Source: Lama guanicoe (taxonomy: Eukaryota). From it: DNA of 64,000 nucleotides. Every line of letters starts with the position of its first letter. Position 1 is the first letter of the stretch. The notes beneath the pieces are model-generated. The model saw only the letters and a program-made list of their open reading frames with translations. It did no database searches and was not told the origin of the DNA. This document shows positions 9,594-12,200 of this stretch, piece by piece. The position numbers and the translations under genes were made by a program. Location: assembly GCA_013239625.1 (NCBI GenBank), contig MU055452.1, forward strand, positions 971,394 through 1,035,393. Reading direction: 5' to 3'.

Positions 9594-10049
9594 AATATAA
9601 ATCTGATCTTGGCACATTATTTTTGACAGGTCTCCCTCCACTTAATATCTTAACGGGGATGACTCTTCTCTTGACACGCATTCTACATAGAAATCCTTCA
9701 TAAATGCATGCTCACTGGACCTGCCAGGAAAGGGCCCTGCACCAGAGGAGCTGTTTCCCGGGAGTTGAAGTCCCCATGGGGAACCCCAGAGCCACAAGGC
9801 TACGGGGCTCACCTTGCCACCACTGACCCTCTCCACCCCGAACTCCTAGAGTTCTTAGAATTTTCCTCGGGGGTTCGCTTGCTGTGAGAACATCAAGTAA
9901 ATCTATTGCATTGGAAGAGCCTTAAAACCCAGCCAAACTCTCCAGATTTTAAAAGACAAAAGGCAAAAAGACTACTGGCCAGGAGGTCTGGTTCTGGCTC
10001 TTGGGTGGCCTAGGGAAATCATCCCCTCTCTCGGCCTGTTTTTCCTTCT

Positions 10050-11760
10050 GTAAAATAAGCGGGATCCAGCCGAGGACTAAGGCGAGACATCGCAAGCCCC
10101 GCTCAGGTGTGACGACGGGGTGGTCGCCGGGCCCCCGAGCCTCCCTCCGAGGACGCAATTATTTCAGAGCACCTTCTCTGCTAGGAGTTGGACTCAGGCG
10201 ATGTAGCGGAGCCGCCCCGTGAGTCCGCAAGCTTGGCGGGCCGGGCCAACCCCCGCCCGGACGATCGGGTTGATCCCCACCGACGCCTCGGCCCCGCCCA
10301 CGCGCCGGCCCCCGAGGCCCACCCCGGCGCGCTGCCGGCACCCCTCCCGACCTGCCCCGCGACGCCCCCGCTCCCGCCGCTGAGCGTGCCGCCCCGCCCT
10401 CCCCGGAGTCTCCGTACCACGCGGGCGGAGGGCTGGGCGGGACGGGGCGGGACGCGCGGGAGGCGGAGCCGAACCGGGGAATCCTGCTCCCGGCGAGTGC
10501 CGGGCCCCGCAGAGCAGCCTGCCCGTCCGAGGGCCCCCGCACCGGGGGCGGCGGGGAACCCCAGACGCCACCGGGCCGGGACGGAGCCCCGCGCCGAGCG
10601 AGCAGCCGCCACTGCCTCCGCGCCGCCCTAGCGGACTGGAGGGGGCCCGGCGCTGCCTCACTCCGCCCGCCGCCAGCCCCCGCGGTCCCGCCGTCCGCTC
10701 GCCGGCCCGTCTCCGGCACGCCATGCAGCCGCCTCCAACCCCGCGCGCGTAGGCGCCCGCCGCAGGCCATGCTGCCCCTGCTCGTCGCGCTGCTGGCCGC
10801 CGCCTGCCCACTGCCGCCAACCTGCGGCGGGGCTACGGACGCGCCCGGCCTCCTCGGGGCGCCCCTCAACGTCTCGGTCAACGCGTCGTCCGCGGGCGAG
10901 CCCGCCGCCCCGCGGCTGCTGGCCTCGGCAGCGCCCGGGGCCCCCGAACAACCGGGCCCNNNNNNNNNNNNNNNNNNNNNNNNNNNNNNNNNNNNNNNNN
11001 NNNNNNNNNNNNNNNNNNNNNNNNNNNNNNNNNNNNNNNNNNNNNNNNNNNNNNNNNNNNNNNNNNNNNNNNNNNNNNNNNNNNNNNNNNNNNNNNNNNN
11101 NNNNNNNGCCTTCCACCGTGTCGGGCCGCCGCTGCTCATCGAGCACCTGGGGTTGGCGGCGGGCGGCGCGCAGCAGGACCTGCGCCTCTGCGTGGGCTGC
11201 GGCTGGGTGCGCGGCCGCCGCCCCGGCCGCCTCCGACCTGCCGGCGCCACCGCCGGGGCGCCCACCGCGCTGCCCGCCTACCCCGGGGCCGAGCCCCCTG
11301 GGCCGCTGTGGCTGCAGGGCGAGCCGCTGCATTTCTGCTGCCTGGACTTCAGCCTGGAGGAGTTGCAGGGAGAGCCGGGCTGGCGGCTGAACCGCAAGCC
11401 CATCGAGTCCACGCTGGTGGCCTGCTTCATGACCCTGGTCATCGTAGTGTGGAGCGTGGCCGCCCTCATCTGGCCGGTGCCCATCATCGCCGGTTTCCTG
11501 CCCAACGGCATGGAGCAGCGCCGGACCACCGCCAGCGCCGCCGCCGCCGCCCCCGCCGACCCTGTGTCCGTGCTCTCGGTGCCTTTCCCGCCGGGAGCCT
11601 CGGCCGGTGTGCTTCGTGCTGTAGTGACCGTTAGTTCTTCTTCCGGGGAGGGGACCGCCGGAGAGGCCCCAGAGTGTGGGAAAAGCAAGGTTTGTGCCGC
11701 TCTTCTGGCTCCGAAACGCGGGTGCAAGCCCTTGCCCTGCAGGGTGGGATCCGCAGCTTG
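10050..11760. promoter_or_regulatory. CpG island covering the TMEM158 promoter and gene body; GC boxes around 10420-10470
   Basis: Abrupt shift to very GC- and CpG-rich sequence against CpG-depleted flanks; several GGGCGG (Sp/KLF) motifs at 10422-10470; no TATA box seen. Confidence 0.9.
10723..10752 (+). promoter_or_regulatory. Upstream ORF (MQPPPTPRA*) in the presumed TMEM158 5'UTR
   Basis: gccATG CAG CCG CCT CCA ACC CCG CGC GCG TAG; the stop lies 16 nt before the main ATG. Translation is inferred, not shown. Confidence 0.55.
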
Positions 11761-11835
11761 GAAGGCTGAGAGGAGGAACTGGGGCCCTTTCCCCTCTTCG
11801 CGTCCCCCTGCCCTCCTCCCTCCCCACACCCACGT
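10769..11835 (+). CDS. TMEM158: Transmembrane protein 158 (RIS1), single exon; homology ends ~11557, frame stays open into masked bases, true stop not visible
   Basis: Translation MLPLLVALLAAACPLPP...AFHRVGPPLLIEHLGLAAGGAQQDLRLCVGCGWVRGRR...GEPLHFCCLDFSLEELQGEPGWRLNRKPIESTLVACFMTLVIVVWSVAALIWPVPIIAGFLPNGMEQRRTTAS matches mammalian TMEM158 as I recall it. It has a signal-peptide-like N-terminus, NVS/NAS sequons, a C-terminal hydrophobic segment and gccATG context. The N run at 10960-11107 keeps the frame. The track end at 12031 depends on reading through Ns. Confidence 0.95.
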
Positions 11836-11984
11836 NNNNNNNNNNNNNNNNNNNNNNNNNNNNNNNNNNNNNNNNNNNNNNNNNNNNNNNNNNNNNNNNN
11901 NNNNNNNNNNNNNNNNNNNNNNNNNNNNNNNNNNNNNNNNNNNNNNNNNNNNNNNNNNNNNNNNNNNNNNNNNNNNNNNNNNNN

Positions 11985-12200
11985 TTTGTTGTTTTTTAAT
12001 TTATTTAAGGGGGGGCATAGGAATGATTTAACACTGATATATTGTTACCGCTGAAAATGAACTTTATGAACCTTTTCCAAGTCGATCTATCCAGTGATGT
12101 GGCCAGGTGGGCGTTTCTTCTTGTACTTCTGTGTTTTTTTGGCTTTTAATACAGACATTTTCCTCCAGAGATGCGTATGTAGCTTTTTCTTTATTTGATT
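11985..12200 (+). terminator. Distal TMEM158 3'UTR with AU-rich element and likely non-canonical poly(A) signal AATACA (12148-12153)
   Basis: ATTTATTTA at 11999-12007; TGTA at 12122-12125; AATACA followed by a GT/T-rich tract at 12172-12200. The sequence resembles the end of the human TMEM158 mRNA as recalled. Confidence 0.6.

Follow-up and report, generated by a model that had tools for sequence, protein, structure and literature searches.

A review (PMC10627164) places TMEM158 in the plasma membrane, gives it two predicted membrane segments, and describes it as induced in Ras senescence and linked to TGF-beta signalling in tumours. The function of the protein is poorly defined, and our literature searches brought up neither a function for its lysine end, nor a report on variants of its alanine tract, nor any work on the gene in camelids, the joint mentions of TMEM158 with camel or alpaca all belonging to unrelated human topics. 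Two other kinds of described systems are relevant to a copy of this gene that lacks its end. Assemblies made from short reads accumulate erroneous indels and missing sequence where genes are GC-rich, for which secondary structure has been proposed as a cause (PMC9516821), and some of the published genome assemblies of South American camelids are of the short-read type (PMC7331169). Stop-loss variants are reported to exert their effects mainly through loss of function (PMC12817085), and quality control is reported to remove the products of read-through (PMC10364623).

The window, that is, the entire stretch of 64,000 nucleotides analysed here, contains a single strong CpG island (approximately 10001-12000). 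On the plus strand, the segment 10200..10768, with 81-82% GC and 32 CpG per 200 nt, presumably includes the promoter and the 5'UTR, and is followed by a one-exon coding sequence that starts with the ATG at 10769 and can be traced to 11557 (10769..11557), the end of EQRRTTASAAAAAPA, the last stretch of this frame that matches orthologues. There is one N run inside the retained coding sequence, and its length preserves the frame. The identity of the gene is clear from the search with 150 residues of its translation, which yielded 237 protein matches at E<=0.001: among the 120 of these that were listed, the named proteins are nearly all TMEM158 and carry PF27962, and the best match among those listed, P0002, is 98% identical over the 150 residues searched. 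The region 11380-11700 has one match in the assembly (G000; 2.05 Gb in 55,231 pieces), which makes TMEM158 a single-copy gene and excludes a second copy, or an alternate haplotype, from which the start of the UTR might have come. CDCP1 and LARS2 are conserved neighbours of TMEM158; a search of the assembly with the LARS2 domain gave no matches, probably because introns split this domain.

At 11557..11558 (plus strand), the similarity to the orthologues ends in a gap-free junction, at which approximately 64-107 nt present in the relatives (P0002, P0005, P0139 and P0150) are absent. P0002 is the same as the window up to AAAAAPA and then continues for 21 further residues ending with VTSGTATK; the short tail rich in alanine and threonine, with its final lysine, is absent from the assembly at TMEM158, and this absence is the lesion at issue here. 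As the sequence-only reading of this DNA had noted, the frame stays open past 11557, running as DPVSVLSVPFPPG...PPHTH through 92 stop-free codons (11558..11833, plus strand) until it meets the N run beginning at 11836. Should this run be stop-free, the latest possible in-frame stop on the same strand is at 12029..12031, but an earlier stop within the run is likely because, when downstream-like DNA was shuffled 3000 times, just 92 of the shuffled versions stayed open for 49 codons, and because one record in the same UTR frame as the window stops approximately 17 residues past the matching point.

By its matches, the DNA that follows 11557 is the 3'UTR of TMEM158. Frame 0 of the window matches UTR-derived peptides in aberrant records from donkey, Aotus and elephant, frame 1 matches two eared seals (RPVCFVL), and frame 2 matches macaque (LGRCASCCS). 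Within 11558..11833, frame 0 has no stops and the other two frames have two each. The 92-codon open frame is nevertheless unremarkable and needs no special cause, given that 393 of 3000 dinucleotide shuffles (13%) of this stretch of 66% GC are equally open. Neither AATAAA nor ATTAAA occurs between 11558 and 13500; the first of the five variant hexamers in this interval, AATACA (12148..12153, plus strand), is a candidate polyadenylation signal.

The size of the missing segment, judged from non-camelid relatives, would be about 89 nt (range approximately 64-107). The distance between the stop and the PVS-coding motif is approximately 26 nt in donkey and Aotus versus 3 nt in the window, which, together with a tail like that of P0002, suggests the absence of some 63 nt of tail (approximately 21 codons), the stop codon and probably about 23 nt of UTR; with a tail of the dog length, the estimate rises to approximately 107 nt, and if GACCC is a remnant of the stop, it falls to approximately 64 nt. 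The earlier estimate of 90-100 bp, including the alanine tract and the stop, agrees with this figure, but the proposal that GACCC is what is left of TGACCC is probably incorrect in view of the same difference in spacing; a shorter UTR specific to camelids may be behind the 3 nt at GACCC. The internal alanine tract, which had seemed shorter than in human, is not peculiar to this genome: there are 8 residues between the anchors in the window, the same as in Oryx and P0002.

The C-terminal tail was surveyed in 151 proteins, of which 135 are homologues with the QRR anchor and 15 lack the anchor, the protein of the window itself being set aside. These records are not independent species, and many of those that do not end with lysine are marked partial; with this reservation, 96 of the 135, from frogs to mammals, have a terminal lysine, and the median length of the tail after QRR is 13 residues. 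The tails range from 4 residues (TSSK, in frogs) to 44 (a rodent-like record), with no lysine-ending tail longer than 44, and all the length variants that end with lysine are in frame and keep the stop. The terminal lysine is kept from frogs to mammals, while the spacer rich in alanine and threonine that precedes it varies between 3 and 43 residues (P0002-P0151). In human isoform 2 (P0140), the tail is shortened in frame.

This tail looks like a trouble spot in mammalian records. Among 15 named mammalian taxa, 8 (Macaca, Aotus, Loxodonta, Eumetopias, Callorhinus, Phoca, Oryx and Neotoma) have a record in which the tail is cut off, frameshifted or fused to other sequence, a count that is inflated, since damaged records cluster apart from the others, and that may include some real alleles or introns of gene models. 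The Oryx record, marked partial, stops one residue short of the junction in the window. The two eared-seal records (P0122 and P0126) end with the same UTR-derived peptide, which they reach through different joins, and these ends may result either from error or from a real deletion.

The search for a full-length protein that carries the extension in frame found none, either among longer proteins, where the only match is a frameshifted donkey model, or among 1.84 billion representatives, where the three matches are a UTR fragment, the donkey model and an unrelated repeat protein; likewise, no named camelid TMEM158 record came up in the protein searches (the 120 listed of the 237 matches, the 5 matches to an N-terminal query and the extension queries), both results being weak negatives. 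In an index of sequencing runs, 77 sampled words were looked up in 24 runs, none of which had all 77; four runs from one organism and one study had 73 of the 77 (0.95), a score that, with one breakpoint costing 3.3 words on average and one SNP costing as many, fits either equally well and carries no weight here. A scan of metagenome contigs with a 20-nt UTR motif gave three matches, all three by chance (18-33% identity downstream).

The quality of the assembly in comparable DNA was assessed on 28 GC-rich developmental genes from G000, namely, 4 HOX13, 21 forkhead and 3 SOX loci. The 21 forkhead loci are those with a near-complete domain in one piece, out of 30 fetched; loci with a partial domain match (L028-L030, L032-L035, L037 and L038) were omitted from the frame count. 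Gene labels follow characteristic features of the proteins and, for loci that have an eh1 motif, the eh1 table of PMC1939712, to which the comparisons with published values refer. Intact controls have the eh1 motif and the protein end at the published position/length in FOXC2 (270/501), FOXB1 (170/325) and FOXL1 (262/346), and FOXD3 has 378/481 compared with the published 378/478 (PMC1939712). In the FOXC1-like locus (L010), the part after eh1 is approximately 15 codons short relative to the human value in the same table (PMC1939712). The FOXD1-like locus (L015) has approximately 12 extra codons after eh1, in an odd, non-repetitive segment.

Altogether, 21 of the 28 control loci are free of frameshifts and of N runs, and runs of 14-18 alanine codons are preserved in the HOXA13-, HOXD13-, FOXL2- and FOXE1-like loci, so that this assembly does not simply collapse GCC runs. 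N runs, among which masks and gaps are indistinguishable, are found in or beside the coding sequence in 5 of the 28, two of these being flanked by duplicated stretches (L008 and L027) and one accompanied by a frameshift (L041). In L008 (1-1560), L027 and L035, which are HOXA13-like and FOXE3-like, a stretch is repeated on either side of an N run, as would be expected if a scaffold gap had been flanked by a false duplication. In the SOX1-like L041, the N run and the frameshift are near 1250-1300, at the start of the HMG box.

Two of the 21 forkhead loci, one FOXD2-like (L020) and the other one that we take to be FOXQ1-like (L031), have gap-free frameshifting deletions, both in GC-rich DNA. In L020, which contains no N, the forkhead domain is not read in the frame that encodes the N-terminus and its DIDVVG motif. 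The stretch from the ATG to eh1 spans 1073 nt, or approximately 358 codons, compared with 412 in human and 409 in mouse, which makes it approximately 150-160 nt short, and the part after eh1, with 76 residues, has the human length (PMC1939712). The deletion, gap-free, frameshifting and approximately 150 nt long, immediately precedes the forkhead domain, near 1500 (G000:C5752, near 9914350, minus strand), and is probably an assembly error. In L031, the frameshift follows the forkhead domain, near 1850-1875 (G000:C7248, near 651100): the eh1 motif is absent in all three frames, a normal-looking C-terminus is found in another frame, and the frame of the forkhead domain reads past the stop, as in TMEM158. 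Approximately 313 codons remain, about 87 fewer than the reference values of 402 and 400 (PMC1939712). This break, too, is probably an assembly error. FOXQ1 shapes the hair shaft in mice, which makes the break of interest as the source of the DNA appears to be a fibre animal. The assembly, then, includes gap-free deletions of at least 100 nt in GC-rich exons, in roughly one of every 10 forkhead genes read, and lesions similar to that of TMEM158 are present in unrelated GC-rich genes (2 of the 21 forkhead loci, next to the 5 of 28 loci with N runs).

Against this background, the loss of the TMEM158 tail and stop in this assembly very probably arose in the sequencing or assembly of GC-rich DNA and most likely does not exist in the animal. 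In a structure-prone stretch of approximately 80% GC, low coverage or skipping by the polymerase would have left the segment poorly read, and its two sides would then have been joined without a gap; the animal itself likely makes a normal TMEM158 of approximately 284 residues, with a short alanine-rich tail and a lysine end. This reading is favoured because similar breaks affect two further GC-rich genes of G000, because 5 of the 28 control loci have N runs in or beside the coding sequence, because false lesions of this general kind are known from short-read assemblies (PMC9516821), because the same tail is broken in the records of 8 of 15 mammals (in a sample biased towards breakage), because 96 of the 135 records keep the lysine-ending tail, and because the extension was not found in frame in any full-length protein among those searched. 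The breaks in TMEM158 and in the two forkhead genes would all be false, given that one technical cause behind all three is much more likely than that a single animal should have three independent real knock-outs or stop-losses of this one kind; for the FOXD2-like and FOXQ1-like genes, this is an argument from plausibility. An artefact had already been considered in the sequence-only reading, in the form of a collapsed GCC repeat, and of this proposal, the artefact is favoured by the evidence, but the route is not. Simple collapse implies an in-frame join from run to run that keeps the stop, as exemplified by the white rhinoceros record P0123, whereas here the join leads from Ala-Pro-Ala into the UTR rather than from one alanine run to another; a repeat scan of 11400-11835 detected only short pairs at chance level. 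Several facts count against an artefact: there is no N at the junction, the island of 80% GC keeps its frame everywhere else, 21 of the 28 controls are clean, the alanine-codon runs named above are intact, and real in-frame shortening of the tail exists, as in human isoform 2.

Some of these facts fit a real allele of the sequenced animal, a private or polymorphic deletion in the GC-rich tail caused by replication slippage or end-joining. The protein would then be extended by 92 or more residues from the UTR, would probably be unstable, and the allele would act as one of loss of function. The gap-free junction in an otherwise well-assembled island would be expected in this case, and the tail is mutable in nature, as is apparent from its variation between frogs and a rodent-like record and from the human isoform that lacks part of it in frame. 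However, natural length variants that end with lysine are all in frame and retain the stop, and breaks of the same type in 2 of 21 forkhead loci put the base rate of error far above the rate that we judge should be expected of real stop-losses in a conserved gene, so that such an allele is unlikely. Less likely still is the event that the earlier reading had offered as one of its alternatives, a stop-loss fixed in the camelid lineage, whereby a stop codon and a lysine kept since the amphibians were lost and the gene's own 3'UTR became a new C-terminal tail on the cytoplasmic side, of at least 92 and perhaps up to approximately 140 residues. The extension is open for 92 codons and is not hydrophobic overall (mean hydropathy -0.12; 1.32 in the best 19-residue window), the coding sequence before it retains 98% identity to P0002, the best of the matches listed, and the transcript of a single-exon gene would escape junction-dependent decay. 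Nevertheless, 13% of shuffles are as open, and in donkey, Aotus, elephant and one further record this frame, which is UTR there, has 35-70 codons free of stops. The protein searches yielded no match that carries the extension in frame, and the terminal lysine is maintained from frogs to mammals; the notion of a new tail received no positive support, and the artefact is preferred.

If the lesion is an artefact, it is a warning that calls of gene loss or stop-loss that rely on a single lesion in the CpG islands of this assembly need to be checked against reads first because gap-free deletions affect GC-rich coding exons at the frequency seen among the forkhead genes. A lesion that proved both real and fixed would show cleanly how a 3'UTR can turn into protein, and would offer a natural test of the role of the conserved terminal lysine of TMEM158.

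Compared with TMEM158 (RIS1, p40BBP; PF27962) of other tetrapods, the gene in this assembly has the same hydrophobic segment, QRR anchor, single copy and single-exon layout in a CpG island, but the last 21 or so residues and the stop are absent, and the frame continues into the UTR. The aberrant records of Eumetopias, Callorhinus, Oryx, Phoca, Loxodonta, Aotus, Macaca and Neotoma are broken in the same tail, and several run into the same UTR, each, however, with its own join or frame. The stop-loss, or nonstop extension, variants described in the relevant portions of PMC12817085, PMC10364623 and PMC11502859 would resemble the present case, were it real, in translation into the 3'UTR up to the next in-frame stop; those variants are validated by reads, whereas this one is seen in an assembly and also drops approximately 21 native residues. 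The false lesions reported by Kim et al. 2022 (PMC9516821), as far as the cited sections describe them, share with TMEM158 the setting in a CpG-island coding exon of approximately 80% GC and the presence of further lesions in other GC-rich genes; they are small indels, gaps and missing 5' exons that were judged against reads, whereas the lesion described here is a gap-free loss of approximately 90 nt at the 3' end of a coding sequence, seen in the assembly alone.
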